A stretch of DNA of 26,467 bases from Fidelibacterota bacterium (GTDB taxonomy: Bacteria > Fidelibacterota > Marinisomatia > Marinisomatales > JABMOV01), in NCBI GenBank assembly GCA_046861395.1, contig JBHHUC010000027.1, forward strand, positions 1 to 26,467, written 5' to 3'. This document shows, one piece after another, positions 1,010 through 25,836 of the stretch. Made by a program: the position numbers and the translations under genes. The number at the start of each line of letters is the position of its first letter. The first letter of the stretch is position 1. Below the pieces are notes generated by a model that had not been told where the DNA came from, did no database searches, and was given only the letters and a program-made list of their open reading frames with translations.

Positions 1010-1017
1010 GGTTTACC

Positions 1018-2150: not shown

Positions 2151-2166
2151 ACGTTCTCATTCCTTT

Positions 2167-6666: not shown

Positions 6667-6670
6667 CCTG

Positions 6671-7240: not shown

Positions 7241-7244
7241 CGAC

Positions 7245-9767
7245 TTACCACCGCAATTTGAACTGGAAGAATAATTTCCATTCTTCCTCTCCTTCACTGG
7301 TTTCTTTAATTTCCCGTTCAATGGAATTGAATACACCGATTTGTTCCAGGTGAATCTGAAAATTGGTCAATTGGATATCGGCGAGGGACGGGTCGGACTG
7401 TACAAATCCGTTTATCTCCAGTACGCTGTCATAGTAATTCGGATTATTAAGATCGGTTTTATCTTCCGCTGTCAATTCCTTCTTGAAGACCAGAGACGTA
7501 AACTTGATATTTTTATCAATGTCGTTGGACAGAATTTTTAATATTTTTAATACGTTCTTAGTATGTATCCCGTCGTTTTTCAACAATTTATAATATCCAT
7601 CGATGATGTCCAAATCCTTTAAAATATCAAAATATTCCTGAGATTGTTCGGACAATGTTTCCCATTGATTTGTTTTTTCAACCACCTCTTTATTCATCAT
7701 TTTTATTTGAATATTGGAAAAGAATAAGGTTGTGATCAGGAAGGGCAGAATAAAGGCCGAAGAGGCGGCGGCCAATTTGGACAAGAAAATGAACCGGTAA
7801 CTGGCCAACGTATTTTTTGGCAGAATATTGAAAGTCTCAATTATATTATTCAATAGAGCAAAATTGAGAGAATACTTGGAAATTTCCTGCTCCCGGATAG
7901 TCACATTGTCATCAAAATGGAAAGTTTCATACCGAGTTGGATTCATCAGTTGAACATCCAGTTCCAAATTATCCGATAACACAGTCGTCATGTGGGGGAA
8001 ACTGGCTCCAATTCCATCTATAAATACACCGTCCCAGCTCATTTCGGAAAATTGCTTGGTAAAATAGTTTTTAGAGCGATTAATTTCATTGACCAGGCGT
8101 TCCACCGGTGGTCGCAGGAAGATCGAAAGTTTATACAGACTGATACCGAGTTTGGGTATGATTCCGTTCTTTTCTTGCGGAATACCGTAATCATGAATGA
8201 TTTTTACAGCCTTGTCTTCCTTGATTTCCACCGACCCGGCCTTGGTCATGATTTTCTGCTGTATGGCCTCATAGAATTCATTCGCACCCATGGCAATATC
8301 ACGGCTAAATACAAATTCATGATTGACGATCACAACCAGGGTTGTCGCATCATGACCGATATAGACAATGGCATAGGCTCCGGCTTTGAAATCCGGGTAA
8401 TTATGAATGAAGTTTTTCCAGATCAGAATGGGAATAGTGGAAAATAATCGTAATTTGATTTTATAGTTTTTATACTTACTGATTAACGATTCCAGTGTCG
8501 CCCGCTCGGCAGCCCCGACCACGACACTTTGTTTATTACTATCAACGATATCAGGAGCGGCACCCCAACTGATCGCCGCTTCATCCGGTTTAAAGGGAAT
8601 GGTTTTCTTAATATTCCAGGCTACTAAATCCTTCATTTCGGATTTTTTTACAACGGGAGTCTGGAATACCTTGGTACGGGTATTAACACCTTCATAATAC
8701 ACCGCGCCGTGTAGAGATTTACGATTGGTCGTCCTAATTTCTTTTTCCAGAATATAATCCAATAAATCTTCTACATGGTATAATACTTCATCACCAGCCT
8801 GGAAAGGAACTTCATAGGAATGAGCAAAGCGAATAATGGTCTCTGACTTGGTGGTTTCCAATTCCAGGACCTGGATGGCTTTTTTTTCAATAACAATGGA
8901 AAACCGATACCGGGATTCATTCAAATAACGTTTGATGAAGTTTAATGTTAACTCATTTTTCGTTGGTAAATAGCTTTGCGGCAAAGGAACAAATAAGCGA
9001 GAATTGAACTCATGGGGCGCAACTTCATGTTCACTGGCTTCCGATTCTCCGATCGCCTCAGCCGAACTGACCTGAATTTCACTGAGTAAATCACCTACTC
9101 CCGGCCCCTGATCATCAAATGATAGCGATTCTGGCTGATCCGGTAACGGTGTTTTTTTCGGTTCTTCGACCGACTTCGGGATCGGCGTCTCCGACGTCAA
9201 ATCCGGTATCTCCTCTTCCCCCGCCTCCGGGGAAACTGTGTCCGCCTCGGCAGCAGGCTGGTCCGGGGCGATTTTTTCTGATACCGGGGTTTCTTCAGTA
9301 CCGGTCTTTGATTTTAATACATCAAAAAGATTTTGAGAAAATTCATCCGGATCGGCTGTGGGCTGGTGTTGTTCGATGTCCAGTGCTTCCAATTGTGGTT
9401 CATCAGCAGGTAACACAGGTTCATCTTTCGGTTTCAAGGCGTCGGCTAGACTTTCCAGGAGTTCCTGGGACGAAATCTGCTCCTCGCTGTCCACCGCTGT
9501 ATCATCTTCCAACTCGGGAACCAGGGTTTTATCATCTACAATTGGTGATTCCGTGGCACTGCTTTGGTCGCCATCTTCAATTGTTACAGCAATGGGTTTA
9601 CCGTCTTTTTCTTCCGGTTGCGATTCTTTGGCAGCTTTTTCCTTTACCGCTTCAGGAATATCATCCGGTGTTCCGGCTTGTTGCGACCGCAATAAATCAA
9701 GCAACCGATTGGTAGCTAATTCTTTTTGTTCTTTCGGTTTTTTTTCTTCAGACACGGAAAGGATCAC
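7245..9767 (-). CDS. PilM-PilN fusion (MshI/GspL-like) with long acidic disordered N-terminal extension; start may be GTG at 9755
   Basis: PilM-like AIVYIGHDATTLVV...FSRDIAMG and VFIDGIGA...LSDNLELDVQLMNP, then the PilN signature FNILP (INLLP-like), a TM helix, coiled coil and PilN-like LKILSND...IKFTSL...LEINGFV...F...LEQ..VF. First ~250 aa are D/E/P-rich. Confidence 0.8.
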   Translation of the reverse strand: MILSVSEEKKPKEQKELATNRLLDLLRSQQAGTPDDIPEAVKEKAAKESQPEEKDGKPIAVTIEDGDQSSATESPIVDDKTLVPELEDDTAVDSEEQISSQELLESLADALKPKDEPVLPADEPQLEALDIEQHQPTADPDEFSQNLFDVLKSKTGTEETPVSEKIAPDQPAAEADTVSPEAGEEEIPDLTSETPIPKSVEEPKKTPLPDQPESLSFDDQGPGVGDLLSEIQVSSAEAIGESEASEHEVAPHEFNSRLFVPLPQSYLPTKNELTLNFIKRYLNESRYRFSIVIEKKAIQVLELETTKSETIIRFAHSYEVPFQAGDEVLYHVEDLLDYILEKEIRTTNRKSLHGAVYYEGVNTRTKVFQTPVVKKSEMKDLVAWNIKKTIPFKPDEAAISWGAAPDIVDSNKQSVVVGAAERATLESLISKYKNYKIKLRLFSTIPILIWKNFIHNYPDFKAGAYAIVYIGHDATTLVVIVNHEFVFSRDIAMGANEFYEAIQQKIMTKAGSVEIKEDKAVKIIHDYGIPQEKNGIIPKLGISLYKLSIFLRPPVERLVNEINRSKNYFTKQFSEMSWDGVFIDGIGASFPHMTTVLSDNLELDVQLMNPTRYETFHFDDNVTIREQEISKYSLNFALLNNIIETFNILPKNTLASYRFIFLSKLAAASSAFILPFLITTLFFSNIQIKMMNKEVVEKTNQWETLSEQSQEYFDILKDLDIIDGYYKLLKNDGIHTKNVLKILKILSNDIDKNIKFTSLVFKKELTAEDKTDLNNPNYYDSVLEINGFVQSDPSLADIQLTNFQIHLEQIGVFNSIEREIKETSEGEEEWKLFFQFKLRW

Positions 9768-10575
9768 TGTCTTTCATTCTTTCAAATACGTCGGCCCCCG
9801 AGACCTTGGTCTTGCCCGCCATCAGCATATCAATGATTAACTGGTGACATGATGTGACGATTTTACGGGGAAACCCCTTCGTTTTCTCATGAATAATCCG
9901 CATGGCATCTTCAGTAAATAAAGGATCATCCATATCGGCACCGGCTACAGATAAACGGTGTGAAATAAATGCGATGGTATCATCCAGATCCAACGGTCGT
10001 AAGGTATATCCGAAGGATATGCGGTCCCTGAAATTTTCATGCTTATTGAGCAATTCCTTGAATTCCGGTTGGGCAAAAATGATCACTTGAATTAATTTGG
10101 AATCATTGGTTTCAAAATTCAGCAACGTGCGGATAATTTCGAGCTGGGCACTGCCCATTTTCTGTCCTTCATCTATGACCAGTACAATACGACGATTACT
10201 GTGAATGGCCATATCGATGAGATAATGTTCAATCTTGTCCATCATATCCACCTGATGATTATGCGTCTGCTTGATGCCGAACATTTTCTGCAGATACATG
10301 AGGAATTCGAAATTATCCTTCCAGGTCGGATCGAGAATCAGATAAAACTTATAATCCTTTCCAAATTCGACGAAGCGCCCCAGCAACAGTCGCGATAATG
10401 TCGTTTTTCCCGTCCCGATCCCACCAATAACCACATTCAAGCCACGATTGAGTCGCAGCGAAATTTCCAAGCGGTTTAAACATTCACCATGACTTTTAGA
10501 CTGGTAAAAGAACTTGGGATCCGGAGCCATGGAAAAAGGCTCTTTTTCTAACCGAAGCAGTTCATAATAATCCAT
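9748..10575 (-). CDS. ExeA/GspA/MshM-family AAA ATPase (stand-alone, no peptidoglycan-binding domain)
   Basis: YYELLRLEKEPFSMAPDPKFFY..SH, Walker A GGIGTGKT, Walker B VLVIDEGQ, LLNFET..KLIQVIIFAQPE, ISHRLSVAG, TKGFPRKI. Confidence 0.92.
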   Translation of the reverse strand: MDYYELLRLEKEPFSMAPDPKFFYQSKSHGECLNRLEISLRLNRGLNVVIGGIGTGKTTLSRLLLGRFVEFGKDYKFYLILDPTWKDNFEFLMYLQKMFGIKQTHNHQVDMMDKIEHYLIDMAIHSNRRIVLVIDEGQKMGSAQLEIIRTLLNFETNDSKLIQVIIFAQPEFKELLNKHENFRDRISFGYTLRPLDLDDTIAFISHRLSVAGADMDDPLFTEDAMRIIHEKTKGFPRKIVTSCHQLIIDMLMAGKTKVSGADVFERMKDSDPFRV

Positions 10576-10598
10576 CGCTTATTTCCTGATAATGATGT

Positions 10599-11204
10599 TC
10601 ATTTTACCGAGTTTAAGTTCATCAAATAGGCATTGCAAAATTGCAGAATATCTTCCTCGGTCACCGGACTCTGTAGGACTTTATCAACCTGCAATTCCTT
10701 CAATTCGGATAAAATGCCATTCTCATAATTCTTTGTAATAACCAGGATGGGAAGATCCTGGAAAGATTTCTTGGAGCGGACCACTTTCAGGAATTCAATT
10801 TCGGATGTATCCCGTGATTTTAGGTCCATGATGATTAATCGTGGTGGAACCGGATGGACTTTCCGATAACCATCGAAACCATTGGAGGCGGAATCGATAT
10901 CGATTCCATTATACAGTCGCCGCAGTAATCCCTGGATTTCATCCAGCCGGACCGGATCATCATCAATAATCAACACATCGGCAGCATAATGTTTATCTCC
11001 AAAATAATAGGGATCATAAGTGAAGCCTTGTTCCGCCAGGAAAGAAATAAATTTTTCCCGTGTGATTCGATAATGACCCGAAGGAGTAGAAAACGCTTCC
11101 AGATTACCATGACGAATCCAGCGTTTTACCGTATTGACATCAACCTCACAATAGCGGGCCACATCACCGGTGGTATAAAATTTCTTTGGTTGCTTCGAAT
11201 TCAT
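10599..11204 (-). CDS. Response regulator with N-terminal BldC/excisionase-type (HTH_17, MerR-like) DNA-binding domain
   Basis: YTTGDVARYCEVDVNTVKRWIRHGNLEAFSTPSGHYRI is a BldC/Xis-type wHTH; receiver VLIIDDD...LIIMDL...VIT follows, with QSP in place of the conserved KP. Confidence 0.88.
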   Translation of the reverse strand: MNSKQPKKFYTTGDVARYCEVDVNTVKRWIRHGNLEAFSTPSGHYRITREKFISFLAEQGFTYDPYYFGDKHYAADVLIIDDDPVRLDEIQGLLRRLYNGIDIDSASNGFDGYRKVHPVPPRLIIMDLKSRDTSEIEFLKVVRSKKSFQDLPILVITKNYENGILSELKELQVDKVLQSPVTEEDILQFCNAYLMNLNSVK

Positions 11205-11396: not shown

Positions 11397-14300
11397 TTAT
11401 TTAAGGAGCATGAGCTTTTTAATAGCCGAATAAGATGGTGTCCGCAAACTCATAAGGTACATTCCGGCACTGACTGGTGAACCATCCCTGTTTCGTCCGT
11501 TCCATTTTATGGAATGAAATCCGGCAACTTCTTCCCGGTCCACCAGGCGTACTATTTCCTTCCCCAGGACATCATAAATTATAATCGTAACCCGGGTATC
11601 CTCCGGCAAATCGTAGTCAATTGTCGTGACTGGATTAAAGGGATTGGGATAGTTCTGCCGTAGAGCATAGGTGGCGGGAACCGGACGTTTGGTTTTTACC
11701 GTATAATAGGCATACGTCTGGAGCGAAGCGGTATTCGCCCCGTCACGTAAGTCACCGAAAAGATTGATTGTCGAATGCTCTCCCTGCAATCGCTCAAAGG
11801 TGATGCGTGCCAAAGCGGTTACCAAGTGCTCATCATCCGTTGCGGCTGCCGATTGGATAATCACATGGCCCGTTTCTTGGATATCTTTTTTCAGAAACAG
11901 CCATTGGGGCTCCAGGGCGGATTGAATAGATTCGACCTGCAACTCTTCCGGTTTATAATGGAGAGATAATGCAAATGCTCCGGCATCCAATGATGAATCG
12001 GTGAGGGCCACGGTAAGAATAAACCGGTTATCCGGTTCACCGGGTTTACGGTCGGGATAAGTGACGGAAACAGATAAATAATCATCATTTTCAATGGTTG
12101 ATCCCCGCGCCACGACTAGGTTACCATTATCCAGTGTCCAATTCCACATTTGGGCAAAAACCATCAAATCTTCAAAATCAAAACGGACATCGGGTTTAAC
12201 ATGAAAATAGGGGACCGTTCCCGTGACTGGCCCCACTTCCTGTTCCGGTAATACGGTATCCTGCATCCAGATATCCCGGAAGACCAGCAAATCTTCAAAA
12301 TTAATCTGATTATTTACATCATAATCGCCCAGGAAACGAACCGTGTAGACCAGATTCAATGTATCCTGTACACCGTCTGGATCATCGTTGAGGTTACCAT
12401 CGAACGGATTCCCGGCTTCATCCTGAAGGAGCGGAGAAAGATGTACGACGATTTGATCCCCGGCCGTCCACCCAGAGTCCGCCGCAATTTCAATGGATTG
12501 ATTCGTTCTGTTCCATTCAACCGTCGTATTGTAGGTTTCCCGGGTACCGGTAACCGTAACACCTGTCAGCACCGATAGGGAATCCAGAACCGACGACATG
12601 GTAATCATGATCGGTGACTGCCACAGTATGGGATCGTCCCCTGTATCAATAACATGAGGCAGGAATTCATTGTCTATATGAATTTGTATCGTATCTCCCT
12701 GACCGTATTCCCATTGGTCCTGCAAGGCAGCAGCGATGGTGATAATTGTATCCTGGTTAAATAAATCCGTTTCAGAATTCCAGCGAAGGTCCAACGTATA
12801 TTGATCCGACCCGATGTCGCTGATATCCTCATCTGGTACCAAAGGATTCCATACCGTTTGATCGTATGACCATGAGAAAGTTAATTGATAATGATCCTGG
12901 GTGGGATCCTGAATCTGGACGGGGATGGTGACAATCTGCGACATTTCCTCGAAGGGATCCAATGCCAATGTGAGATTCCCGACATGGTTATCCAAAATAA
13001 AAGGCCCGGTTACCATGTAATTTAATCCGATACCATCGAATGCAGTCACGCGAACAAAGACTTCGGTGGAATAACTGTCCCCCAAATCCATCTGGCTATC
13101 CCAGATTACCGTCACTGTATCAAGGCCGGGAATTCCGATCATATCCGACAGATACATCGGCTGCCAGGAAAGATTATCCACCATATATTCCCAGGTTATC
13201 TCTAGGGAATCCCCGTTGGCATCCAGAAACCAAGCTTGCACAATGACATCTCTGTGCTGCTCCGATTCCAAGGGAACTACATGGACTTCAGGCAATTGAT
13301 TATTTTGATTCATTCGAATGAAGATGGTCTGACGATCCGATAATTCCCCGTCCGACACAACGATTCGGAAGCTGGTATCGGTATGGAACGGTTCCGGGAC
13401 GCCAAACACCGAATCACCCGCGAGGGTACACCATGAAGGCAGATAATCCGCTGACCAGAACAGAGTTGAATCTTCTTGATCGATGGCAGTTCCGTGATAA
13501 ATAAAATATTGTCCGCTGTTGGCCTCAACCAGATTGCCGGAGGTAATGACCGGAGGATCATTGACGGGTGTTATATTGATGGTTACCTGCCAGGTCTGTG
13601 ACAGTTCACCATCACTTCCCGTTACAAAAAGGACTGTGTCCAAGTCCCCTTCTTCTGGTGTTCCATAGAGCGAGTCTGCCTCCACCACCGTCAACCAACT
13701 GGGTCTAACGGGAAAACTCCAGTTTATCATTGACCCTTCTGGATCAAATCCCGTGACACGGTAACCCACTGGACTATCTTCCATGGCGTATATATCAACC
13801 GCTGATGTCATGACCGGAGGGTCATTCACCGACAGGACCGTCAGATCAACAACCAGAGTATCGAGCAAAAAACCGTCATGGGTATACACGGTGAAACTGG
13901 TATCACTGTCCCCCTCGTTGGGCGTACCGAAAAGTGAATCAGCCGAGGCGGTCAGCCAGGTCGGGTAATCCACGAAAAACCAGGCATGAAATGAATTATC
14001 AGGGTCAACTACCTCACCCCGGTAAACATAGTACTCATCTTCCTGAGCGGTATCCTGGGCAGCAGAAACGATGACCGGCGGATCATTAATATAGTTGATA
14101 TGAACCGGGATGGTCAGTGAATCTGAAATCAATCCATCATCCACAACCAACCGGAAAATCGTATCACTGGCAAAATCATCCGGAGTACCGCTTATGGTCG
14201 CCCCGTTGGCATTCGTCCACCACGGATGAATATCATAATAATAATTTAATTGAGGATTGTCCACATCCACGGCTGACCCGGTGAAGGAAAACGGATTTTC

Positions 14301-16421
14301 TTCTATCAGAATAAAAGATGTATCATAGGGAAAGAACGGCGGATCGTTGACCGGGGTTACGGTAACGGTTAACGACAGGTTGGCACTGGCACCCAGCGGA
14401 TCTGTGACCTGCAACGGGAATGTTTCGGAAAAACCACTTGAATCAGGATCGGTAAAAAAGGTGATACTATGGTCTGGCTCATTGTAAACGGCAACTATTC
14501 TGTTCCCTGCCGGTATGGTAAATACAAGTGTTTCATCCGGGTCACTGTCATCACTGACCATGAGATACAGATCCAGAGTGAGACTATCATCTTCCAGAAA
14601 ACTTGTATCCGCCGCTGAGGTCCACACCGGAGCAGCATTGGGAATGACTGACAGAATTGCCGTGGAATCACTTTCATTGCCGGCACCATCACGAGCGGTA
14701 ATAAAATAGTAATATGTCTGACCGTTGGTGACGGCCGAATCTGTGTAGGTTGTGTCGGGATGAAGAACCATGGAGGGAAGTGGCGCAAACGCATTGGGTG
14801 TCAGCCCCTTATAAATGACATAGCTGGCAATATCAAATTCGGAATTCCCGTTCCAGGATAAGATAACCTCCAGATTGCCGCCCTGAGCCTGAAAATTCGA
14901 CGGCGTGGCCGGTGGAATAGCGTCGGAGCATTCTGTCAAATACACGTCCGTGTCCAGCGTAACAATATCCGTTTCAACCGTGATGGGTAGCGATACTCCC
15001 GATAAATCCATCGTATAATCACAGGAATCCTGGCCCGAACTAGGTGAACCATTCATATCAATGAAAGCACCGACAATATACCCGCTGTCAGGAATGAGAT
15101 TGGCAAAGGAATACAGGTAGGTCTGATTCACATCCAGATTGACCGATACCGGTACTTTTTCCAGGTCCGGGGAATCCAGATCGGGATCCGATCCAGGAAA
15201 CCAGCAGGATAGGTACAGCATTCCGCTGATCGGTCGGGTGGCAATAATATTCCCCTGAATGGCTCCGTTCCCTGATTCGAATACACTGATGTAACCCTGG
15301 CTGTCATCACTGGATTGATTGCCAAATGAATCAATAGCCGTCACGCGAAACTGGGTGTATTCCAGGGGCCCCATCGGTGCCACAACGGGCTCCACGCCAT
15401 CGTTGGCAATCGGACCGGTTTGATCGGTGAAAAAGTCTCCGATCTGTGGCGACAATGATATATGAATGGGATAGGTATCGAATGATTCATCCCATGCCGA
15501 CCACTGCACATCTACCGGCGTCATTTCCAGAATGGCTTCACCGCCGTCGGGTGTCAGGAGATCCACGCTGGGATTAGTGGCATCCACGATGATCTGATCA
15601 CTAAGTCCTAGATACTGCGCCGTCGTATCCCCGGTTCCGGCATTTCCTATTCGGAAATATCCCTCACTGAAATCGGCACTTTTATTTCCGAAGGAATCTT
15701 TGGCGAATACTGCCAGACGGGCAAAACGGGTATCAATAACGGGTAGGAAAATTTGAGCGGTTCCCGTATTACTAGTGCTGTCCAGCAAAGGATTCACAAA
15801 ACCGCCAATTGTTTCCATCAGTCCAATATCAATGGGGTTGGAACTGAAACTTTCATCCTGAGCATTAAATAAAACGGTTATTTCCTCACCAGGAGTGAAG
15901 ACTTCGCCGCCGTCAGGAGAATTCAGCATGAGTAACGGATCATTGGCATCAACGGTTACCGGAGATGACATTCCGCTGAAGATGGAGGTTGTATCGATAC
16001 CACCTCCCGTAGTGCCAATGGAAATATATCCCAGGGACGCATCTTCAGCCACGTTGCCGAAGGCATCCATGATTTTGATTTTCATACGAAAATAATTGGT
16101 CGATACGGAAGGCGTTGTAAGATTAATGCTCCCCGAATTGGGCAGATTGGATGCCAGCAGAACAAACTCGCCGCCGATTTCAGTCGCATATTCGGCCGTA
16201 ACCGGATTATTTGCGAATCCTTCATCCCCGGCATTCCAGACACAGGTAATAACATCACCGTTCTGGTAAATTTCTCCGCCATCGGGTGCTGTCAGATCGA
16301 TCCAGGGATCATTGGCATCAACCGTAAAAACAGCCGATGTTCCGACAAAGACCGCCGATGAATCGGTCTGCGCCTGAGAGAAGGCAAACAACAATAATAA
16401 TATGGGTGAGACCCGTTTCAT
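11397..16421 (-). CDS. Giant secreted surface protein/adhesin: 3 Ig-like PDGGE repeats, FN3, 5 cadherin-like repeats, 2 Ig-like domains, SbsA-like Ig, dockerin-like, cohesin-like, Por/T9SS-type CTD (FlgD-Ig)
   Basis: Signal peptide MKRVSPILLLLFAFSQA|Q; FN3 PPATP...LSW...SYVIYKG...YTD...NGQTYYYFITARDGAGNES; repeated VNDPP...P.W; GDYDVNNQINFEDL; C-terminal YALRQNYPNPFNPVTTIDYDLP...IYDVLGKEI...WNGRNRDG..VSAGMY...KKLMLLK. Confidence 0.9.
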   Translation of the reverse strand: MKRVSPILLLLFAFSQAQTDSSAVFVGTSAVFTVDANDPWIDLTAPDGGEIYQNGDVITCVWNAGDEGFANNPVTAEYATEIGGEFVLLASNLPNSGSINLTTPSVSTNYFRMKIKIMDAFGNVAEDASLGYISIGTTGGGIDTTSIFSGMSSPVTVDANDPLLMLNSPDGGEVFTPGEEITVLFNAQDESFSSNPIDIGLMETIGGFVNPLLDSTSNTGTAQIFLPVIDTRFARLAVFAKDSFGNKSADFSEGYFRIGNAGTGDTTAQYLGLSDQIIVDATNPSVDLLTPDGGEAILEMTPVDVQWSAWDESFDTYPIHISLSPQIGDFFTDQTGPIANDGVEPVVAPMGPLEYTQFRVTAIDSFGNQSSDDSQGYISVFESGNGAIQGNIIATRPISGMLYLSCWFPGSDPDLDSPDLEKVPVSVNLDVNQTYLYSFANLIPDSGYIVGAFIDMNGSPSSGQDSCDYTMDLSGVSLPITVETDIVTLDTDVYLTECSDAIPPATPSNFQAQGGNLEVILSWNGNSEFDIASYVIYKGLTPNAFAPLPSMVLHPDTTYTDSAVTNGQTYYYFITARDGAGNESDSTAILSVIPNAAPVWTSAADTSFLEDDSLTLDLYLMVSDDSDPDETLVFTIPAGNRIVAVYNEPDHSITFFTDPDSSGFSETFPLQVTDPLGASANLSLTVTVTPVNDPPFFPYDTSFILIEENPFSFTGSAVDVDNPQLNYYYDIHPWWTNANGATISGTPDDFASDTIFRLVVDDGLISDSLTIPVHINYINDPPVIVSAAQDTAQEDEYYVYRGEVVDPDNSFHAWFFVDYPTWLTASADSLFGTPNEGDSDTSFTVYTHDGFLLDTLVVDLTVLSVNDPPVMTSAVDIYAMEDSPVGYRVTGFDPEGSMINWSFPVRPSWLTVVEADSLYGTPEEGDLDTVLFVTGSDGELSQTWQVTINITPVNDPPVITSGNLVEANSGQYFIYHGTAIDQEDSTLFWSADYLPSWCTLAGDSVFGVPEPFHTDTSFRIVVSDGELSDRQTIFIRMNQNNQLPEVHVVPLESEQHRDVIVQAWFLDANGDSLEITWEYMVDNLSWQPMYLSDMIGIPGLDTVTVIWDSQMDLGDSYSTEVFVRVTAFDGIGLNYMVTGPFILDNHVGNLTLALDPFEEMSQIVTIPVQIQDPTQDHYQLTFSWSYDQTVWNPLVPDEDISDIGSDQYTLDLRWNSETDLFNQDTIITIAAALQDQWEYGQGDTIQIHIDNEFLPHVIDTGDDPILWQSPIMITMSSVLDSLSVLTGVTVTGTRETYNTTVEWNRTNQSIEIAADSGWTAGDQIVVHLSPLLQDEAGNPFDGNLNDDPDGVQDTLNLVYTVRFLGDYDVNNQINFEDLLVFRDIWMQDTVLPEQEVGPVTGTVPYFHVKPDVRFDFEDLMVFAQMWNWTLDNGNLVVARGSTIENDDYLSVSVTYPDRKPGEPDNRFILTVALTDSSLDAGAFALSLHYKPEELQVESIQSALEPQWLFLKKDIQETGHVIIQSAAATDDEHLVTALARITFERLQGEHSTINLFGDLRDGANTASLQTYAYYTVKTKRPVPATYALRQNYPNPFNPVTTIDYDLPEDTRVTIIIYDVLGKEIVRLVDREEVAGFHSIKWNGRNRDGSPVSAGMYLMSLRTPSYSAIKKLMLLK
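13305..14640 (-). repeat. Five tandem cadherin-like/He_PIG Ig repeats (~88-97 aa) in the giant protein
   Basis: Units start NAAP/NDPP and carry E(D/E), DPD/DVD/DPE/DQE, P.W...GTP and V.DG motifs; boundaries approximate. Confidence 0.8.
15279..16364 (-). repeat. Three tandem ~122-aa Ig-like repeats at the N-terminus of the giant protein
   Basis: Each reads D(S/T)(S/T)....G.S....VDA.(D/N)P...L..PDGGE...(W/F).A.DE.F...P...D(A/S)FGN...D.S.GY(I/F); starts at 16364, 15995 and 15629. Confidence 0.88.
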
Positions 16422-16424
16422 GAA

Positions 16425-17618
16425 TTACTGCCGGGTTTTCCTTTTACTCGCCTTATTCTGTTTTAATAAATATTTCGCCCGTGCGGTGCTAATGTCACGG
16501 ACACAGCGGAAACCCTTATCACGTCTCGAATAATTTGGCTGCTCAGACCATCGTCTATAGGATTGAATATCCCACTGGTTATGGTTGAAGGCACCGGACC
16601 GCCAGATTCGTCTGGAAGGTTCGTTTTGATCCCATGTAACTGTCCATTCCTTGACATTCCCGGCCATATCATAAGCGCCAAAAGGGGAAGGACTGTCCGT
16701 AGTTTGAAATCCATTATAATTCTGACCATTGTAAAATCCCACGGGTGTCGTGGCAAAGATGTCCCAGTTATCACCGCCCTCCCACGGGTCACCACTGTAT
16801 CGATAGTTGGCATTACTACTATCAATCACGTCCCCCCAGGGATATTCCCAGCCGGTCGTATCGCGGGCTGCCTTTTCCCATTCTTCTTCCGTCGGCAATC
16901 GCAAACCGTAATAGGATGCAAATTTATAGGCTCCAAACCAGGTTACTCCCGTTACCGGATGATTACCGTATCCTTCGTCGACAATGAAAGTTGTTCCATT
17001 CCAGTGGATCCGGCTTTCCCAACGGTAATGAAGGGAATAGTTTCCTGGGCCATAATGTTCATCACCGGCATAAAAACCCTGGACTTCATCCCCCCCATTC
17101 ATCCAGACAACACCGGCATCAAGGGCATCAATCAAAAAAGCGGCATATTCGGCATTGGTTACTTCAAATTGCATGATTTCATAATCGTAGGAAATATTGC
17201 GAATTTCATCATTATTACCGTAGGTAAAATTCCCGGCGGGAACGACGACGAAGGAAAAAGGTACATCTATAAAACGACCGGTGGCGATAACCTGAATAAC
17301 GGTTTGGTCACTATACATTCCCCCATATTCCGATCCCAGAAACCATTCGATATGTTTACCCGGTCCGGCGACAATCCCATCGCCAATGTCACCGGTTGCG
17401 TGTGAGGTATTTGTAAAGGAAACACCACCGTCAAAACTGATTTCCAGTGATACGGAAAAGGTGGTAAAAGTAATATCTTCACCCAGATCGTAATATATAT
17501 CCACAATCTTGGATCCATCGGTGCGCTGGGCGGCAGTTACATTTGTCACCGAAGCAGTCTGGGCGGATAAAAGTGCAACGCTAATCAATGCTAATAGAAT
17601 TCGGGTCATGATCTTCAT
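16425..17618 (-). CDS. Secreted FGE-sulfatase (SUMF1-like, C-type lectin fold) protein with N-terminal Ig-like domain; probably non-catalytic
   Basis: Signal peptide ...LLSA|Q; VTNVTAAQRTDGSKIVDIYYDL domain; FVVVPAGNF, EVTNAEY, HPVTGVTW, RLPTEEEWEKAAR, YPWG, FGAYDMAGNVKEW, GFRCVR. The FGE catalytic Cys pair after the RGG(S)-like motif is absent. Confidence 0.9.
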   Translation of the reverse strand: MKIMTRILLALISVALLSAQTASVTNVTAAQRTDGSKIVDIYYDLGEDITFTTFSVSLEISFDGGVSFTNTSHATGDIGDGIVAGPGKHIEWFLGSEYGGMYSDQTVIQVIATGRFIDVPFSFVVVPAGNFTYGNNDEIRNISYDYEIMQFEVTNAEYAAFLIDALDAGVVWMNGGDEVQGFYAGDEHYGPGNYSLHYRWESRIHWNGTTFIVDEGYGNHPVTGVTWFGAYKFASYYGLRLPTEEEWEKAARDTTGWEYPWGDVIDSSNANYRYSGDPWEGGDNWDIFATTPVGFYNGQNYNGFQTTDSPSPFGAYDMAGNVKEWTVTWDQNEPSRRIWRSGAFNHNQWDIQSYRRWSEQPNYSRRDKGFRCVRDISTARAKYLLKQNKASKRKTRQ

Positions 17619-17640: not shown

Positions 17641-18567
17641 TCATGGTTGCCAAATGGATATGGTACTGTTCTGGATCAACAACAGTTGATCTTGATTCAA
17701 GGTGTTTCGCAGGGCCGATTCAGGTAATATTTCCACTTCACTAATTCCGGAAGTACCGATATGTTTCAGGATTATACGGACGACTTCGCCGGATCCGCTG
17801 ATACCGTTTCCCACCCCGGAGGTCAGCGCAATATTGATGGAAAACAGACCATTCGTACTGTCCATATCAACCAAGGTAAAATCGGTTACATTGTCCGCCA
17901 GATTTTGCAGTAGGAAGCTGCCGGAATCAGCTTGGAGCAGATATTGCTGCAATACAAATTGTTGAGGGTCAAAGTGTATCCTGGCATAGATGCCCATTAA
18001 ATCGACTACATCAATGGCATTCAGAGATAACGCTATGACCTGATTCACATTCATATTTGCATTACCAGGCGATAGGATCAGGCCAGGACCCTGTAGCGCA
18101 TCTACTGAAAAACGACGATAGGGCCAGGAATTTTCCTGAAATCCGGTGGGATAGGAAGCCCGGACCTCAAACCAGTATTCTCTGTCTTCCAATCCGCTCA
18201 GGGTGAAGGTATGGATACCGGTTGTGGTATCAAACGTCCAATAGGGCAGGGAATCAGCTAAAACATCAAACCCGTCAACAGGATTGGACCAGGCACTGGA
18301 ATTAATCCGATAGGAATAGGCAACCCCGGCGGCGATCTGGTATCCTGCGGAATCTGACGGCCAGTAATTCGAGTGGGCATGACGCCACTGGAATGTCGTT
18401 TCAGTTTGATTAATGGTGGAGCCAGTAGCCGGGCCGGCAAGGATTTCCGTCTGTGGTGGTTGAAACAACGGATCTTCTGGGTCAAAGGGATTTTCAATGG
18501 TCCCGAATATTTCAAATGAATTACATCCTGCACCATAGGCGATTAACAGGATGACTATCCATTTCAT
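17641..18567 (-). CDS. Lipoprotein with Ig/FN3-like domain and C-terminal cohesin-like domain (alternative start 18594)
   Basis: MKWIVILLIAYGAG|C lipobox then NPFDP; C-terminal VIALSLNAIDVVDLMGIYARIHFDP..F.L...ISGSGEVVRIILK...SEVEI...LRN is cohesin-like. Confidence 0.75.
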   Translation of the reverse strand: MKWIVILLIAYGAGCNSFEIFGTIENPFDPEDPLFQPPQTEILAGPATGSTINQTETTFQWRHAHSNYWPSDSAGYQIAAGVAYSYRINSSAWSNPVDGFDVLADSLPYWTFDTTTGIHTFTLSGLEDREYWFEVRASYPTGFQENSWPYRRFSVDALQGPGLILSPGNANMNVNQVIALSLNAIDVVDLMGIYARIHFDPQQFVLQQYLLQADSGSFLLQNLADNVTDFTLVDMDSTNGLFSINIALTSGVGNGISGSGEVVRIILKHIGTSGISEVEILPESALRNTLNQDQLLLIQNSTISIWQP

Positions 18568-18601
18568 ATTGAAAATTCTCGGTTCCCCTTTCATAATGTA
18601 T

Positions 18602-18645: not shown

Positions 18646-21141
18646 TTATTTGGCGGTCAGGGTCCAGGTTCCATCCCAGTCATCTCCGGGTGGATTTTCC
18701 TTCAGATGCTCACAGCGGGTAATATACACCGTGGAAGGATTCAGGCTGCGGCCCGGGAACATGTCTTCCAGTTTTTCCGCTTTCCTGAACAGCTTCAGTG
18801 CCTCATCCCAGCGTTGGGCGAAGTAATGTTCCTGACCGGCATGGAAAATATCCAACAGTTCCTGATTCTGTTCCGAAAGTTTCCCCTTCTCCGCCAATAA
18901 TTCATATGTTTTCACCGGAATGGTTTTCCCCTTTACGCGAACGTTATCCAGAAAACGATATTCAAGCTGGTCTTTGGTGGCTTCATAGATTTTTTCTGCT
19001 ACCTGGATATAGACGCCATATTGTTTGGCGGAGGATTCAAGTCGGGCGGCCAGATTGACGGTATCACCCATCATCGTATAATTCATCCGCATTTCTGAAC
19101 CCATGTTCCCCGTTACCATTTGTCCGGCATTCAGACCGATGCGATGCTGCATGGCATATACGATATCGGGCCAGTCTCCTTCACTGCGCCATCTTTCCCG
19201 CAGTTCGCCCAGCTTTTCATTCATTTTAAGGGCCGCCATGCAGGTGAGGTATTCCTGATCTTCCACCGGCATGGGCGCCCCCCAGAAAGCCACGATAGCA
19301 TCACCGATATATTTATCCAATGTCCCCCTGTGATCCAGTAGAATTGTGGTCATTTCGGTCAAATACTGGTTCATCAGACTAACCATCTTTTCCGGCTCCA
19401 AGACCTCCGAGAAGGAGGAAAAACTCTGAATATCAGAGAAAAAGGCAGTATGATACCCTGATTCGCCTCCCAACTTCGGCTGTTGTTTTTGTTCGTACAT
19501 CTGATCTATCAAATCGGGGGAAATGTAGGTACCAAAGGTAGATTTCAAGAATTTCTTATCCCGTTGTTCCACAATAAACTTGTAAATCACATTGGAGGTA
19601 TACGTGAACAGAATACCCGCAATGGGAGCGACAATGGGAATCATGATACCTTCCCCGGGCGCAGGTAAGGCCGAATAAAAGAGATCACCATGACTGATAA
19701 CGAATTTTTCAGGAAACAATCCCCGACCGATATACCGTAACGTCCAGAACAGATCATTGGTAAACAGGCCGCAAGCCACGCCGAAATACACGATTCCCTC
19801 GAAGAAAACCAAGATTCCCGCCCAGACCGGATTCATATATGATAACATGACAAAGGCCAGTAAACAAAGCAATCCGGTTAAAAGACTGTGGGACAACAAA
19901 ATCGAGAACGTATTCGTGTCGAGGCGGAGGTCGGTTAACCGGGTACCAAACACATTGATAAAATTGTTATGCAAGATCGTTTGAATGGCATTGGCGTGGG
20001 TTTCCACTCCTGGCGTTAATTGCTGCAAACCAAAATAATTGTAGAATGGTGTAGATTTTGTATCATGCAAAACTTCCACTGCCACACCGATCAGGACAAT
20101 TTTATTATAAAATGGAGATGCGGTAATATCGAAATCAGCGCCCAGCCCCATCATGGCAATCATCTCCTGCCGCTCATCCGGGTCGGGAATCGCTTCAATC
20201 CATTCGGGAATGGATCCAGGAATAAACTGACTCATCCAGTCAATATCCTCTTCCGGATTGCTCAGTTCAACTTCATCGGTATCAATGATATATGCCAGGG
20301 AATAGCGGGGAAAAGTTCCCCACGGTGGGAAATTCTGTGTTGAAGGAATTTTATATCCTGATGGCGGACCGTAATAATTCACTAAAAAACTATTGGTCGC
20401 ACCATAGGCTTGAATGTGCAAGGGTCCGTAAGTCCAGATCAGCGTTTCTGGCTCAAACCGGGGAATCAGGGTGTCCGGTAAATCCAGGAAAGCCTTGGCC
20501 GATTCCATGGCAATCGTCATGAGTGCTTTATCCGGTTGATGATCCAAGGCTGTAAATATTTGATACTGGCGTGAAAATAAATCCACATCAAGTAGATCAT
20601 TAATCACGCCAATTTCCGGATCAACCTGCATAATGGCATCAGAGGGATTGGCCAGATATTGTGGTGGGATCCGTGTGGCCTCCTTGGCCACTTTGGCCGA
20701 TAGAATAACCGTAGTGCCCCGCTCACGAGCCTCAGTAATAGCCCGAGCGATGGCTTCATCCCCATCCTTGGGCGAATCAAACTGGATATCGAAAGCAATC
20801 ACTTTCGCCCCTGCTTTGGACAAGTGTTCGATAGTTTTGGCCCAAACGACCCTGGGATATGGCCATTCGTTCCATTTGGGATTTTCAGATGGCATTAACC
20901 GATAGGCTTCATCATCAACCTCAACCAGAACCACATCCATTCCCCGCTTTAGATAAGTCGAATCCGCTGCGCGCCAACCTGTCAGGGGACCACGGACGCT
21001 GTGAAACCTGAAATCATAGGTTTTCAGTTCCGTAACATCGAAGAGCCCTATCCAATGCAGCAGAGCCGTAGCCAGAATCGACCCTAGGGTAAGCAGCAGA
21101 GCCACACCATGAGATTTAAAATATTTTCTTACTTTTTCCAA
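18646..21141 (-). CDS. CHASE2-domain membrane class III adenylate cyclase
   Basis: N-terminal TM, CHASE2 (ELKTYDFRF..RGP, VVLVEVDD, WPYPR..WA, GAKVIAFDI.F, KIVLIG, PGVETHANAI), TM helices, cyclase FSDIQSFS, DKYIGDAI (Lys, ATP-specifying), YTMMGDTVNLAARLE, VKGK, TPR-like tail ...WDG.W.LTAK. Confidence 0.95.
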   Translation of the reverse strand: MEKVRKYFKSHGVALLLTLGSILATALLHWIGLFDVTELKTYDFRFHSVRGPLTGWRAADSTYLKRGMDVVLVEVDDEAYRLMPSENPKWNEWPYPRVVWAKTIEHLSKAGAKVIAFDIQFDSPKDGDEAIARAITEARERGTTVILSAKVAKEATRIPPQYLANPSDAIMQVDPEIGVINDLLDVDLFSRQYQIFTALDHQPDKALMTIAMESAKAFLDLPDTLIPRFEPETLIWTYGPLHIQAYGATNSFLVNYYGPPSGYKIPSTQNFPPWGTFPRYSLAYIIDTDEVELSNPEEDIDWMSQFIPGSIPEWIEAIPDPDERQEMIAMMGLGADFDITASPFYNKIVLIGVAVEVLHDTKSTPFYNYFGLQQLTPGVETHANAIQTILHNNFINVFGTRLTDLRLDTNTFSILLSHSLLTGLLCLLAFVMLSYMNPVWAGILVFFEGIVYFGVACGLFTNDLFWTLRYIGRGLFPEKFVISHGDLFYSALPAPGEGIMIPIVAPIAGILFTYTSNVIYKFIVEQRDKKFLKSTFGTYISPDLIDQMYEQKQQPKLGGESGYHTAFFSDIQSFSSFSEVLEPEKMVSLMNQYLTEMTTILLDHRGTLDKYIGDAIVAFWGAPMPVEDQEYLTCMAALKMNEKLGELRERWRSEGDWPDIVYAMQHRIGLNAGQMVTGNMGSEMRMNYTMMGDTVNLAARLESSAKQYGVYIQVAEKIYEATKDQLEYRFLDNVRVKGKTIPVKTYELLAEKGKLSEQNQELLDIFHAGQEHYFAQRWDEALKLFRKAEKLEDMFPGRSLNPSTVYITRCEHLKENPPGDDWDGTWTLTAK

Positions 21142-21149
21142 TTATCCCA

Positions 21150-23924
21150 TTAAAATCGGTAACCAAGTGAAAGTAGGATTCCCGAACTATTCAATTCCCA
21201 CGATTCCAGGAATTCATCCGTTTTTCCATTCTGATCATTATCAATTTTATCCCGGTTGAATACCGGTGTATGCAACCACCGGAAATTAGCAGATAAATTT
21301 GCCACTAGGTGTTCAATTATTTCATAATCACCTCCGATTTTAAACCCATATAAACTTGAATTTATATCTCCTTGACTGGCCATCCAGTCCAATCCGCCGA
21401 TCAAACGCAGTTTATTCCCCCAGATGGGATAGGTCCCATTTAACGCCACCATCATCCATAAGTAGGGTTTTTTCACGATCTCACCCTTGGTGTTGAAGGT
21501 TGGCAGTTCCAGTTCTGTGAGACTGGTGGAAATGACCGTTCTCAGCTCCGAAGCAAAACGACTGCTCATATTGATGCCATAGGCACGGGTATCCGTTTTA
21601 GGAAAAAGATAATTCCGGCGACGATCATTGGCAAAATTATCCACACTCCGTATCGTGTTGAAATTGATGACAATGTTATGTGATGATGTTGGCAGTGTGA
21701 TCGGATAATTCAGAGACATTGTGGTTTGGAGACTGGTGGAATTCTCCCTCAAATCGATGGGCGTTCCCGCCACTTTTTCGATTTCGGTCTTTTCGTTATC
21801 CTTGTTGATGGATTGAAAATTGAACATGAGCGAAGGGGCGTCCATGCCCGGCATTATACTCATGCTGGCGGAAAAGGTATTGGTATTCAAAGGGTCGGTT
21901 TGAGTCCGTAGAATTTTATTGTCCCGATGCTGATAACTCACCGCTATGAGAATCTTATTATCCAGCAATTTTATCCTGTTTTTCATGGTGAATTCTCGGA
22001 CATTGCTGGAAAGATAGGGATTTCCCAACGATACAAATTCGGGGCCTACCTGATAATATTCAATGGAAAAGGAATTGAAATAATAATTCCCAATCAGCCG
22101 GAGGGCATAGGCTGACGAAGGCATATTAACGATGGTTGCAACCGGGGATTTTTGGAAGGAAGCGATGTCCAGCGGTACCAATGGCGTCATATATTGATTG
22201 ACCGTAAAAAATTCTTCATATTTCGTTGGGTTGATCAATGCGGCTGTATCTACCATCAGGCCGCCGGCGATAACCAGTCCGTTTTCATCATATTCAACAC
22301 CGATCAGTCCGTCGAGGCTGTCATCCAGGGCCGTATCCAATTCAGTCAATGTCAGCGCTCCGTCCCAGATATTGCGATTATACAGACTCATATTCCAGTC
22401 CAGTTCAATACGGAGTTTATTCTGATCGAAAATCCCGGCCATTTCAAATCCGACAACAAAGTTATCTTCCGGGTCCCCTCCGCTCCATTTGGAATCGGGT
22501 AAATCCACACTGCCGCCCATGGCCGAAACCGCGTCGCGGAAGGATGTATAAGTATATGTTCCGGGAGTAACAAGGGTATCAGCGGTAAAGGTGGCCGAGG
22601 CAGGTAGAATGCGGTCAATACTGGCCCGGTCATCCATGGCCTTGATGGCATGCAGTCCCAGGGAAAATCGTTTAATGGGTTGAATTTTTAACTGGTAAGC
22701 TTTGATCGATCGCTCAAATGTGTACCCGGTACGGTCCAGGGGAAAGATATAATTTCCCAGTGTATCTGTTCGGATATCACTGGGATAGAACACATATCCC
22801 TCATCTTTTTTTCCACCCCACTGAACAGATTGATTTATAATTCCCGAGACGGAGTAGAACTTAATCCAGGGCAGTCGAATATTTACACCCAAACCCCGGA
22901 TTCGCTTACCATCAACGGTGAAAGCATTGAAACTGGGAAAATAGTCCCCCATATTGATGGATAAATAATCGCCGAAGCCCAAACTCAGGGAAAGGCGGTT
23001 GTACGGTTGTTCATAGGGACTTTCCCGCGTGGAAAGGCGGACCTGGGCATCGGCCCCGATCCAAGTAACGCCGACTTCAACCTTACCGGATAGTTCAGAA
23101 TAATTCAAGGTCGTTCCGCTGTTGTATTCCAGAGATGAGCGGGATGATATTTCGCCGCTGTACAGTAATTGTTCCTCCAGATTAAAACCTGATTTCACGG
23201 TGGTGAAGGACCACGCCACCGGTTCAATGGGAACACCATAGACAGAAGACATGGTTATGGTAACCGTATGAGGTCCCGGTTCAAGGTAATCAGGGAGTGT
23301 ATTGATAATTCCTCCGGCCACCAGCGTCCGGTCCGTATAGGAAATCCCATCGATGGTCACTTCGATAGTCGAAGAGTCCACAAACGGTGCATGAAAGAAA
23401 GACGCCGCCACCACAATATCTTCAGGTGGGATTGCGCTACCCGGTTCCGGCGCAAGAATCAATAATTCGGCCTCCATGGCCTGTGTAGCGGCATACTGGT
23501 CTGAGCCGGGAAAACGACGACCCTGCTCAGGGATTTGCTTGGCAGGCACAAATTGGGGATTTTCCAGCGGTGAATCGGCCGGGTAACCAATGGTGCCACT
23601 ATCGTGGGTCAAGATGACAATGGCATATTCAATTCCATCGGATGATATTTTATGTCCCGGGATGGTTCCTTCCCATGACAGGCCGGTGGACCGCATGGGA
23701 ATTTCCTGATAACTGTGATTGCCCCGGGTGCGGTAAAATAAGGTTGCCGAGCGGGCATTTTCCGCTGTAAACGTGGAAACGGTTATGACCTGATCGACTC
23801 CGGGAGTGACCCAGTCCGGTGGATTATGAAATAGAGGGGACTCTGTTTGGCCCTGCAGACCGACTTCGAGGATGCCGATGAGGAGCAGAACCCATCGTAT
23901 AGTGAAAGACCGTCCCGTATTCAT
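21150..23924 (-). CDS. Predicted outer-membrane beta-barrel protein with N-terminal periplasmic Ig-like domains
   Basis: Signal peptide; Ig-like LFHNPP...LFYR...Y.EIPM...WEGTIP...IEYAI; many alternating amphipathic strands; BAM-type C-terminus LLSLGYRF. Confidence 0.75.
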   Translation of the reverse strand: MNTGRSFTIRWVLLLIGILEVGLQGQTESPLFHNPPDWVTPGVDQVITVSTFTAENARSATLFYRTRGNHSYQEIPMRSTGLSWEGTIPGHKISSDGIEYAIVILTHDSGTIGYPADSPLENPQFVPAKQIPEQGRRFPGSDQYAATQAMEAELLILAPEPGSAIPPEDIVVAASFFHAPFVDSSTIEVTIDGISYTDRTLVAGGIINTLPDYLEPGPHTVTITMSSVYGVPIEPVAWSFTTVKSGFNLEEQLLYSGEISSRSSLEYNSGTTLNYSELSGKVEVGVTWIGADAQVRLSTRESPYEQPYNRLSLSLGFGDYLSINMGDYFPSFNAFTVDGKRIRGLGVNIRLPWIKFYSVSGIINQSVQWGGKKDEGYVFYPSDIRTDTLGNYIFPLDRTGYTFERSIKAYQLKIQPIKRFSLGLHAIKAMDDRASIDRILPASATFTADTLVTPGTYTYTSFRDAVSAMGGSVDLPDSKWSGGDPEDNFVVGFEMAGIFDQNKLRIELDWNMSLYNRNIWDGALTLTELDTALDDSLDGLIGVEYDENGLVIAGGLMVDTAALINPTKYEEFFTVNQYMTPLVPLDIASFQKSPVATIVNMPSSAYALRLIGNYYFNSFSIEYYQVGPEFVSLGNPYLSSNVREFTMKNRIKLLDNKILIAVSYQHRDNKILRTQTDPLNTNTFSASMSIMPGMDAPSLMFNFQSINKDNEKTEIEKVAGTPIDLRENSTSLQTTMSLNYPITLPTSSHNIVINFNTIRSVDNFANDRRRNYLFPKTDTRAYGINMSSRFASELRTVISTSLTELELPTFNTKGEIVKKPYLWMMVALNGTYPIWGNKLRLIGGLDWMASQGDINSSLYGFKIGGDYEIIEHLVANLSANFRWLHTPVFNRDKIDNDQNGKTDEFLESWELNSSGILLSLGYRF

Positions 23925-23962
23925 AAAAGAATTTTATGGGAATATCCGTACGGAAAAAAGGC

Positions 23963-24643: not shown

Positions 24644-24645
24644 GA

Positions 24646-25812: not shown

Positions 25813-25836
25813 TGGTCTCTCTTTCAATTGTCTTGA

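Follow-up and report, generated by a model that had tools for sequence, protein, structure and literature searches.

How a lectin-like protein without a secretion tail might be connected to a giant secreted protein is the question raised by two adjoining genes in a 26,467-nucleotide (nt) stretch of DNA from a Fidelibacterota bacterium (contig JBHHUC010000027.1 of assembly GCA_046861395.1, hereafter the window). The lectin-like protein has 397 amino acids (aa; 16425..17618) and the giant protein, a cargo of the type IX secretion system (T9SS), has 1674 aa (11397..16421). On the minus strand, to which all features given with window coordinates below belong, the lectin gene lies upstream and the giant gene downstream, separated by 3 nt, with the lectin stop codon at 16425-16427 and the ATG of the giant at 16421. 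The original prediction, an earlier reading of this DNA, held that the N-terminal domain of the lectin lacks its final strand and is completed by any of three single strands of the giant protein. It proposed modelling of the complex and a search for co-occurrence of the two modules, and it named a complete fold of the lectin domain alone, or packing of the three strands into their own repeats, as outcomes that would speak against it. The three 16-residue strands, the 3-nt gap and the missing T9SS tail of the lectin are all present as it had described them. Following it up we lean towards a modified form of docking, in which lectin and giant are predicted to clip together via a hairpin at the N-terminus of the giant. 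All support for this docking is computational.

The lectin consists of a Sec-type signal peptide, an Ig-like N-terminal domain (N-domain; residues 22-116, 17271..17555) that is the predicted acceptor of the hairpin, a C-type-lectin fold of the formylglycine-generating enzyme (FGE)-sulfatase type (residues 123-374, 16497..17252) and a basic C-terminal helix. The N-domain ends with ...IEWFLGSEYGGMYSDQTVIQVIATG at residues 90-114, and the Pfam FGE-sulfatase match (PF03781, E 1.2e-34), which agrees with the Foldseek assignment, begins at residue 123. No Pfam family covers the N-domain at E<=0.1, but the alignment of orthologues contains invariant columns that define a motif, Q31-R32-x-D34-G35 (QRxDG). 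The AlphaFold2 (AF2) model of the lectin, calculated from a 59-sequence alignment, has a mean per-residue confidence (pLDDT) of 91.4. Modelled alone, the N-domain forms seven strands (24-31, 38-45, 53-61, 74-76, 79-82, 85-93 and 107-115) with block pLDDT values of 86-93. As the C-terminal strand 107-115 is modelled without a partner, the claim that the domain lacks its final strand did not hold in the model, and the first of the two adverse outcomes has, taken literally, occurred. A confident AF2 model of the isolated domain does not, however, prove that the domain is stable alone.

The best Foldseek neighbours of the lectin model are FGE-fold proteins, among them the enzymes CalU17, FGE and EgtB-like proteins, with the T9SS ring lipoprotein PorK (9mzu_A) at rank 40 and TvpA of Treponema denticola (2y3c) at rank 47 (E 2.0e-9). 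Catalytic FGE needs a pair of Cys residues in its active site. The lectin has a single Cys, at residue 372, so that this pair cannot be present and the protein is probably a non-catalytic binding head; a role as catalytic FGE was ruled out on the same ground. An identity as PorK/GldK was ruled out as well, since the partial match to the NCBIfam GldK model (E 1.3e-9) reaches 37.8 bits vs a cut-off of 350, and the score against the NCBIfam EgtB model is 40.1 bits vs 360. Scans with Pfam and NCBIfam found no Por_Secre_tail or other T9SS sorting domain on the lectin. A search with the whole lectin gave 5,969 matches among 8,000 scored candidates, many of which share the FGE fold only, and a scan of a genome collection with the full-length alignment gave 80 loci, nearly all of them FGE-domain-only in other phyla, with a single locus (L074) covering the N-domain. 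The basic C-terminal helix (residues 378-396, 16431..16487, ..ARAKYLLKQNKASKRKTRQ) is common to the closest orthologues and absent in most of the family, which stops at GFRCxRT.

The giant protein begins with a signal peptide (MKRVSPILLLLFAFSQAQ) without Cys, which is followed by three tandem units of a hairpin and an Ig-like core (residues 19-140, 141-264 and 265-386; 15264..16367), delimited by repeat alignment and profile. Cadherin-like/tandem-95 repeats, two internal domains resembling the lectin N-domain and a T9SS type A C-terminal sorting domain of the Por_Secre_tail family (residues 1591-1671, 11409..11651; PF18962, E 1.7e-7; TIGR04183, E 4.3e-8) make up the remaining parts. The Ig cores of the units are Big_7/Kre9_KNH-like. 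The genome also encodes the SprA translocon (574 bits, above cut-off), and the giant thus combines a sorting domain with a T9SS in the same genome, as a T9SS cargo does; by the same standard the lectin is not a cargo.

Each unit of ~122 aa opens with a strand segment of ~18 residues, which is thus present three times in the giant. Site 1, the predicted donor, lies at the mature N-terminus (residues 20-38, 16308..16364), its 16-mer DSSAVFVGTSAVFTVD comprising residues 20-35 (nt 16317-16364), and site 2 (DTTSIFSGMSSPVTVD, residues 143-158, 15948..15995) and site 3 (DTTAQYLGLSDQIIVD, residues 265-280, 15582..15629) are both kept in orthologues. A profile built from the three units retrieved 74 further units in 25 loci from the genomes of 24 relatives, most of them aligned from profile position 1-2. 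Across the 77 aligned units the strand-final Asp (D17) and two prolines after it (including P21) are invariant, and judged from these sequences the strand segments exceed chance. The segment reads as two short strands and a turn, e.g. TLVIF-GESE-IFTVD in relatives, so that the donor looks like a two-strand hairpin rather than the single strand that had been proposed. A profile search of the PDB matched an Ig domain (9kvu_A, E 2.4e-4) that aligned only from unit position 19, placing the hairpin outside the canonical Ig core. An AF2 model of giant residues 1-395, built from a shallow alignment of six sequences, gives pLDDT values of ~70-84 for the three Ig cores and shows residues 1-36, 138-160 and 262-284, which contain the hairpins, as coil with pLDDT <50. 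The hairpins are not packed in cis in this model, and the second adverse outcome, packing into their own repeats, was hence not seen. Each hairpin starts with D-S-S or D-T-T (16356-16364, 15987-15995 and 15621-15629), and D-[ST]-T is found in most relatives; these starts resemble the O-glycosylation sequon of Bacteroidota, D-(S/T)-(A/I/L/V/M/T).

For the complex model, one chain was the mature lectin (residues 20-397), supplied with an alignment of 59 rows, and the other was unit 1 of the giant (residues 19-140), supplied with a 77-row alignment of units; the model covers site 1 and leaves the hairpin free to go cis or trans. The hairpin was placed on the lectin with ipSAE scores of 0.78, 0.74 and 0.71 (median 0.74), as compared to 0.00 for the best of three controls, with a partner pLDDT of 88-89 and 100% agreement of contacts between runs. 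Of 157 solved complexes 116 reach the mark set for the tool, as do 2 of 215 mismatched pairs; this calibration is rough here as custom alignments were used. The modelling proposed at the outset, carried out on unit 1, thus returned a confident predicted interface.

On the giant side the predicted interface comprises the hairpin (residues 20-38), residue 67 and residues 120-124, an invariant D-x-F-G-N loop. On the lectin side it comprises residues 22-35, 37, 39, 41, 43, 51, 64-65, 94-95 and 98-117, corresponding to strand A with the QRTDG motif, alternate residues of strand B, and strand G with the loop preceding it; the FGE fold lies outside. Some invariant residues of both partners fall into this predicted interface, namely Q31, R32, D34 and G35 of the lectin and D17, G104 and N105 of the unit. 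The model places the hairpin strands alongside strands A and G of the N-domain and its QRTDG loop, which would be an augmentation in trans. As the N-domain looks complete with its seven modelled strands, the predicted contact corresponds to the addition of a strand or hairpin rather than to the filling of a groove or to strict donor-strand complementation. The core of the original prediction, that the lectin N-domain clips onto the N-terminal strand of the giant, thereby survives as a predicted contact at residues 20-38, with a hairpin in place of the strand and an acceptor that looks complete in place of an incomplete one.

If the two modules bind each other, their genes should be linked beyond this locus. 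We searched a class sample of 201 genomes for the N-domain and the hairpin unit and found the unit in 25, the N-domain in 34 and both in 22 genomes; in the three genomes with the unit only, the relevant spot coincides with a contig end or with low completeness. Among the 22 genomes that have both, 15 carry the two genes on a single contig and in the same orientation, either side by side or with nothing but genes of diversity-generating retroelements (DGRs) in between. The genome studied here has one N-domain gene and one unit-bearing gene, vs 55 T9SS sorting-domain matches. A scan of metagenomes with an alignment of the N-domain only as query gave 80 loci. In 33 of these a unit is present in the same orientation, lying downstream in 22, upstream in 10 and within the same open reading frame (ORF) in one (L190), and 12 loci are too short to judge. 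The first unit directly follows a segment resembling a signal peptide in 32 of 35 unit-bearing ORFs, as read by eye.

The linkage also extends to other types of head. In three loci (L204, L224 and L160) the unit-bearing partner carries a Por_Secre_tail according to Pfam, and the N-domain partners are Fib_succ_major proteins of ~330 aa in which Pfam found no Por_Secre_tail. In one of these, a metagenome contig (L224, 58-9437), the T9SS stalk gene has one N-terminal unit, and the next four genes in a row all encode heads composed of an N-domain and Fib_succ_major, so that four alternative heads face one stalk there, as compared to three candidate sockets on one stalk here. Two fused forms place both modules in one chain: L190 (6578-8098) encodes a signal peptide, the hairpin unit, the N-domain and the FGE fold in one ORF, and L209 (3941-8056) the hairpin unit, leucine-rich repeats (LRR), the N-domain and Fib_succ_major. 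Adaptor domain and hairpin unit thus stay paired even where gene order or head type differs or the two are fused, as expected of a physical pair. The linkage is frequent, not universal. The co-occurrence anticipated by the original prediction is borne out across lineages, N-domain genes being present in 22 of the 25 unit-bearing genomes and often adjoining the unit gene.

The genes that separate lectin orthologue and stalk gene in relatives point to the nature of the head. Three genomes (G137, G049 and G078) contain, close to the lectin orthologue, a further copy of its 3' end, and the mismatches between this template repeat (TR) and the variable region (VR), which occupies the last ~120 nt before the stop codon, fall on TR adenines in 12 of 14 (G137, L161), 19 of 20 (G049, L032) and 18 of 18 cases (G078, L162). 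Complete DGR cassettes with an Avd-like gene, a reverse transcriptase (RT) gene and the TR lie between lectin orthologue and stalk gene in L161, L032, L031 together with L036 (G076), and L162, and the contigs of G076 and G003 break exactly at the VR/TR. The orthologues combine a fold of the C-type-lectin (C-Lec)/FGE type with a VR at the C-terminal end, as DGR variable proteins do, and those of G137, G049 and G078 have a cognate TR and RT. Sequence evidence thus identifies the orthologous lectins as DGR variable proteins, which the original prediction had missed. The DGR survey of Roux et al. (PMC8144416) describes, in the part available, targets with C-Lec VR domains and varied N-terminal domains. 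By homology to L161, L032 and L162, the approximate equivalent of the orthologue VR in the window is 16503..16613 (lectin residues ~336-372). In the genome studied here blastn found no second copy of the lectin 3' end, hence no TR, and there is no RVT_1 match in the assembly, which is 94.07% complete. DGR activity in this genome was therefore rejected, and on the basis of its sequence this lectin is a static member of a DGR-target family.

Taken together, the two genes would encode a two-component adhesin with the giant T9SS cargo as stalk and the 397-aa protein as binding head. The mature N-terminus of the stalk, and probably each of its three N-terminal repeats, would present a β-hairpin that is unstructured alone, and the head would hang on the Ig-like adaptor with the QRxDG signature. 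All three hairpins might take a head, although only site 1 was modelled. Docking would take place in the periplasm and the complex would then be exported by the T9SS, leaving the head on the distal tip of the stalk, its N-terminus, with the C-terminus as anchor. Carrying just a Sec signal and lacking a sorting tail, the head would reach the stalk, and possibly the cell surface, by docking in the periplasm.

Several observations weigh against this docking, and a number of them fit a somewhat unlikely alternative. Here the hairpins would be internal linkers of the stalk, packed against the Ig core of their own unit or of a neighbour; the lectin would be a protein in its own right, of the DGR type and probably periplasmic; the operon would be shared for one process without binding; and the complex model would be a false augmentation. 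A hairpin precedes every unit including the internal ones, as a plain repeat element would, and in a profile alignment tandem Ig arrays of the Deinococcus S-layer protein 8cka show '...VTVD' strands before an 'xxPxV' strand. The N-domain alone is a confident seven-stranded AF2 sandwich with no sign that it needs a donor strand. The predicted interface is on the whole no more conserved than its surroundings, with a mean column entropy of 1.78 vs 1.82 bits for the N-domain and 2.10 vs 2.33 bits for the unit. Augmentation of edge strands is a typical error of such complex models; the controls used proteins unrelated to the pair rather than a different Ig domain or a hairpin of scrambled sequence, and the two alignments were unpaired. 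Moreover, the N-domain and the Ig core of the unit are distant homologues according to a weak profile match, so that the model could have moved a cis arrangement onto the lectin. Cis and trans were both open to the hairpin, however, and the model took trans with an ipSAE of 0.74 vs 0.00 for the controls, whereas AF2 leaves the hairpins unpacked in cis at pLDDT <50. The linkage data cut both ways. No unit was found in 12 of the 34 N-domain genomes (6 of these have weak N-domain matches and two, G068 and G111, are cut by a contig end), in the 11 kb downstream of the N-domain gene of G070, in 9 of the 80 metagenome loci despite at least 1.5 kb on both sides, and in a further 26 with at least 1.5 kb on one flank only; related genomes are also not independent, so that the co-occurrence counts overstate the evidence. 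Two findings stand against a mere linker: 32 of the 35 partner ORFs begin, once mature, with the first hairpin, and the linkage outlasts changes of gene order, fusion and changes of head type. Two C-Lec heads of Bacteroides without a tail, BovT and BfiT, are periplasmic according to the available part of a preprint (Macadangdang et al., bioRxiv 10.1101/2024.11.15.621889), which suits a separate periplasmic lectin.

The same Bacteroides heads are also compatible with a further, unlikely reading, in which the lectin does bind the hairpins of the giant but in the periplasm only, acting as an escort, holdase or retention factor that is freed at or before T9SS export without forming a surface tip. 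The evidence for binding from the complex model applies equally here, the head bears a Sec signal without a sorting domain, and a title-level literature search found no report of a T9SS carrying a tail-less partner. A hypervariable ligand-binding head, as encoded by the DGR targets of relatives, makes little sense as a chaperone, though, and the four heads per stalk in L224 as well as the fused forms L190 and L209 suit a displayed binding module better. That the FGE-fold protein is instead an enzyme which modifies the giant, e.g. at its conserved Asp-Thr-Thr/Ser-rich hairpins, and that the contact reflects an enzyme-substrate encounter, we consider highly improbable: the Pfam match of E 1.2e-34, the enzymes among the closest structural neighbours and the conserved operon link would agree with it, but the single Cys excludes the FGE Cys pair, the NCBIfam enzyme models remain far under their cut-offs, the predicted contact is made by the N-domain and not by the FGE fold, the orthologues are DGR targets, and Fib_succ_major replaces the FGE fold on the same adaptor. 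Ranked by likelihood, the alternatives to a docked surface tip are intramolecular hairpins first, then a periplasm-only escort and last an enzymatic FGE fold.

Returning to docking of the lectin as a tip, the question arises of how such an assembly relates to known systems. In type V pili, whose subunits are made as lipoprotein precursors bearing a lipobox Cys, a protease removes an N-terminal strand and the groove is then filled by the C-terminal strands of the next subunit. In chaperone-usher pili, which have their own periplasmic chaperone and outer-membrane usher, subunits are joined by donor-strand complementation and exchange, the Ig-like acceptor being short of its C-terminal (G) strand and in need of a partner to complete its fold. 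The giant resembles the latter in having an N-terminal extension, disordered alone, that is predicted to add β-strands to the Ig-like domain of another subunit: residues 20-38 directly follow the signal peptide, have a pLDDT <50 alone and form the predicted interface. By count, however, the acceptor lacks no strand, its C-terminal strand 107-115 being present in the AF2 model. The pair further differs from chaperone-usher systems by a two-strand hairpin as donor, an acceptor that looks complete and the lack of polymerisation, and no chaperone or usher Pfam family was found in the lectin, the giant and 9 neighbouring proteins or pieces, other ORFs of the window being judged by eye only.

The closest described system is that of the type V pilus tip adhesins of Bacteroides, where, as stated in the available part of the preprint cited above (10.1101/2024.11.15.621889), DGRs diversify C-Lec tips. 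Both systems have a DGR-mutable head with a C-type-lectin fold on an N-terminal adaptor, encoded beside stalk genes, and tail-less relatives that consist of the head only exist there as well, as far as that part of the preprint goes. By the same source, the adaptor of the Bacteroides tips is a lipoprotein pilin domain, assembly proceeds by protease-mediated strand exchange, and the product is a polymer of small pilins. Here, in contrast, the head has no lipobox, as the only Cys of the lectin is residue 372 and the signal peptide of the giant has none; the adaptor is a different Ig-like domain outside Pfam; the stalk is a single T9SS cargo of 1674 aa; and the predicted donor is the N-terminal hairpin of the stalk, not a C-terminal strand. 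The pair would work like type V tips and donor-strand exchange but is a member of neither.

Other comparisons concern the head or the principle of mounting. TvpA is a lipoprotein of the same fold class as the lectin and itself a DGR variable protein of the FGE-type C-Lec kind, and the lectin orthologues, like TvpA, have C-terminal VRs with adenine-specific TRs. Unlike TvpA, the lectin has an extra N-terminal Ig-like adaptor, and the present copy has neither TR nor RT in its 94%-complete assembly. With PorK/GldK the lectin shares an FGE-like fold in a T9SS organism, but it has no lipobox Cys, possesses the N-domain and is encoded beside a single cargo gene instead of among the core genes of the T9SS. 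Cohesin-dockerin pairs and split-domain tag/catcher pairs mount different heads on one scaffold through a small module and a matching socket; there is no relation in sequence or fold to the pair described here, whose contact is a predicted strand augmentation that implies no covalent bond. The modelled contact would represent a strand-mediated mounting of DGR-type lectin tips. No description of this arrangement was found in a literature search at title level, although the supplements of PMC8144416 may list the target class, and the titles that join type IX secretion with donor strands concern type V fimbriae or reviews. Among the titles listed that join it with hitch-hiking none deals with co-export of proteins, and those that join it with DGRs are generic.

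DGR-hypermutated heads in relatives and Fib_succ_major heads elsewhere make the pair of adaptor and hairpin look like a general socket for exchangeable heads. Tentatively, this could be extended to a plug-and-socket system of T9SS bacteria (Marinimicrobia and related uncultured lineages), in which tail-less FGE or Fib_succ_major heads, often hypermutated by DGRs, dock via the QRxDG adaptor and the hairpin in the periplasm, hitch-hike through the T9SS to a distal, non-pilus tip and compete with each other for a stalk; we regard this wider system as possible, with considerable doubt. It would be the first example of export by hitch-hiking on a T9SS cargo and would provide a new, naturally orthogonal docking pair of a peptide and a domain. 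Should the docking itself prove real, it would account for the way in which DGR-diversified heads lacking a sorting signal arrive at a display scaffold in bacteria that rely on the T9SS rather than on pili, it would extend strand-mediated assembly of subunits from pili to single giant adhesins, and it would raise the testable possibility that a non-covalent complex is exported by the T9SS. It would also give a role to a widespread N-terminal domain outside Pfam, hairpin and adaptor forming a compact natural docking pair. The hosts are uncultured marine and sediment bacteria, and the system bears on attachment to particles or cells in the ocean rather than on disease.

The original prediction had pointed to a likeness of the lectin N-domain to a domain inside the giant. 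This internal domain (residues ~1043-1145, 12987..13295) does contain the segment in question, ...VIWDSQ...VRVTAFDG and then an extra strand of its own, YMVTGPFILDN, together at residues 1105-1145. The likeness itself proved weak in this protein, as BLASTP of the lectin N-domain against the domain was not significant (E 0.89). The N-domain profile matched residues 1067-1130 of this giant with a domain E-value of 0.043 (4.3e-5 for the whole protein), and giant orthologues with a best domain E-value of 1.8e-7.

A gene for a putative lipoprotein of 317 aa (17641..18594) lies 22 nt upstream of the lectin gene. A Pfam scan gave no match for it, but tblastn found its position upstream of the lectin orthologue kept in, among others, L126-L134 and L166-L168, with 29-56% identity in relatives of the same order. 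The protein may form a third part of the cassette. Residues ~1400-1590 of the giant (11400-12700) contain two D-x-N-x-x-I-x-F-E-D-L repeats and then a β-rich domain, which recall dockerin and cohesin modules; a cohesin/dockerin reading of this C-terminal region and the 317-aa lipoprotein was dropped, as there is no such Pfam match.

Upstream of the cassette of lipoprotein, lectin and giant, the region 18646-25827 contains a CHASE2 adenylate/guanylate cyclase and, farther upstream, a 924-aa protein without Pfam matches and a FecR-domain protein. As seen across L166, L126-L134, L034 and L160, the position of the cyclase is kept in relatives, and cyclase homologues also occur near more distant pairs of N-domain and unit; this hints at a control of the adhesin linked to cyclic nucleotide monophosphates (cNMP). 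Downstream of the giant, the window holds a cluster resembling type IV pilus or type II secretion genes (2-9767 and 9748-11204), in which PilM was identified by Pfam and PilB-, PilT-, PilQ- and prepilin-peptidase-like ORFs by eye only. The region downstream of the giant also contains an AAA_22 ATPase and a regulator with helix-turn-helix (HTH) and receiver domains.

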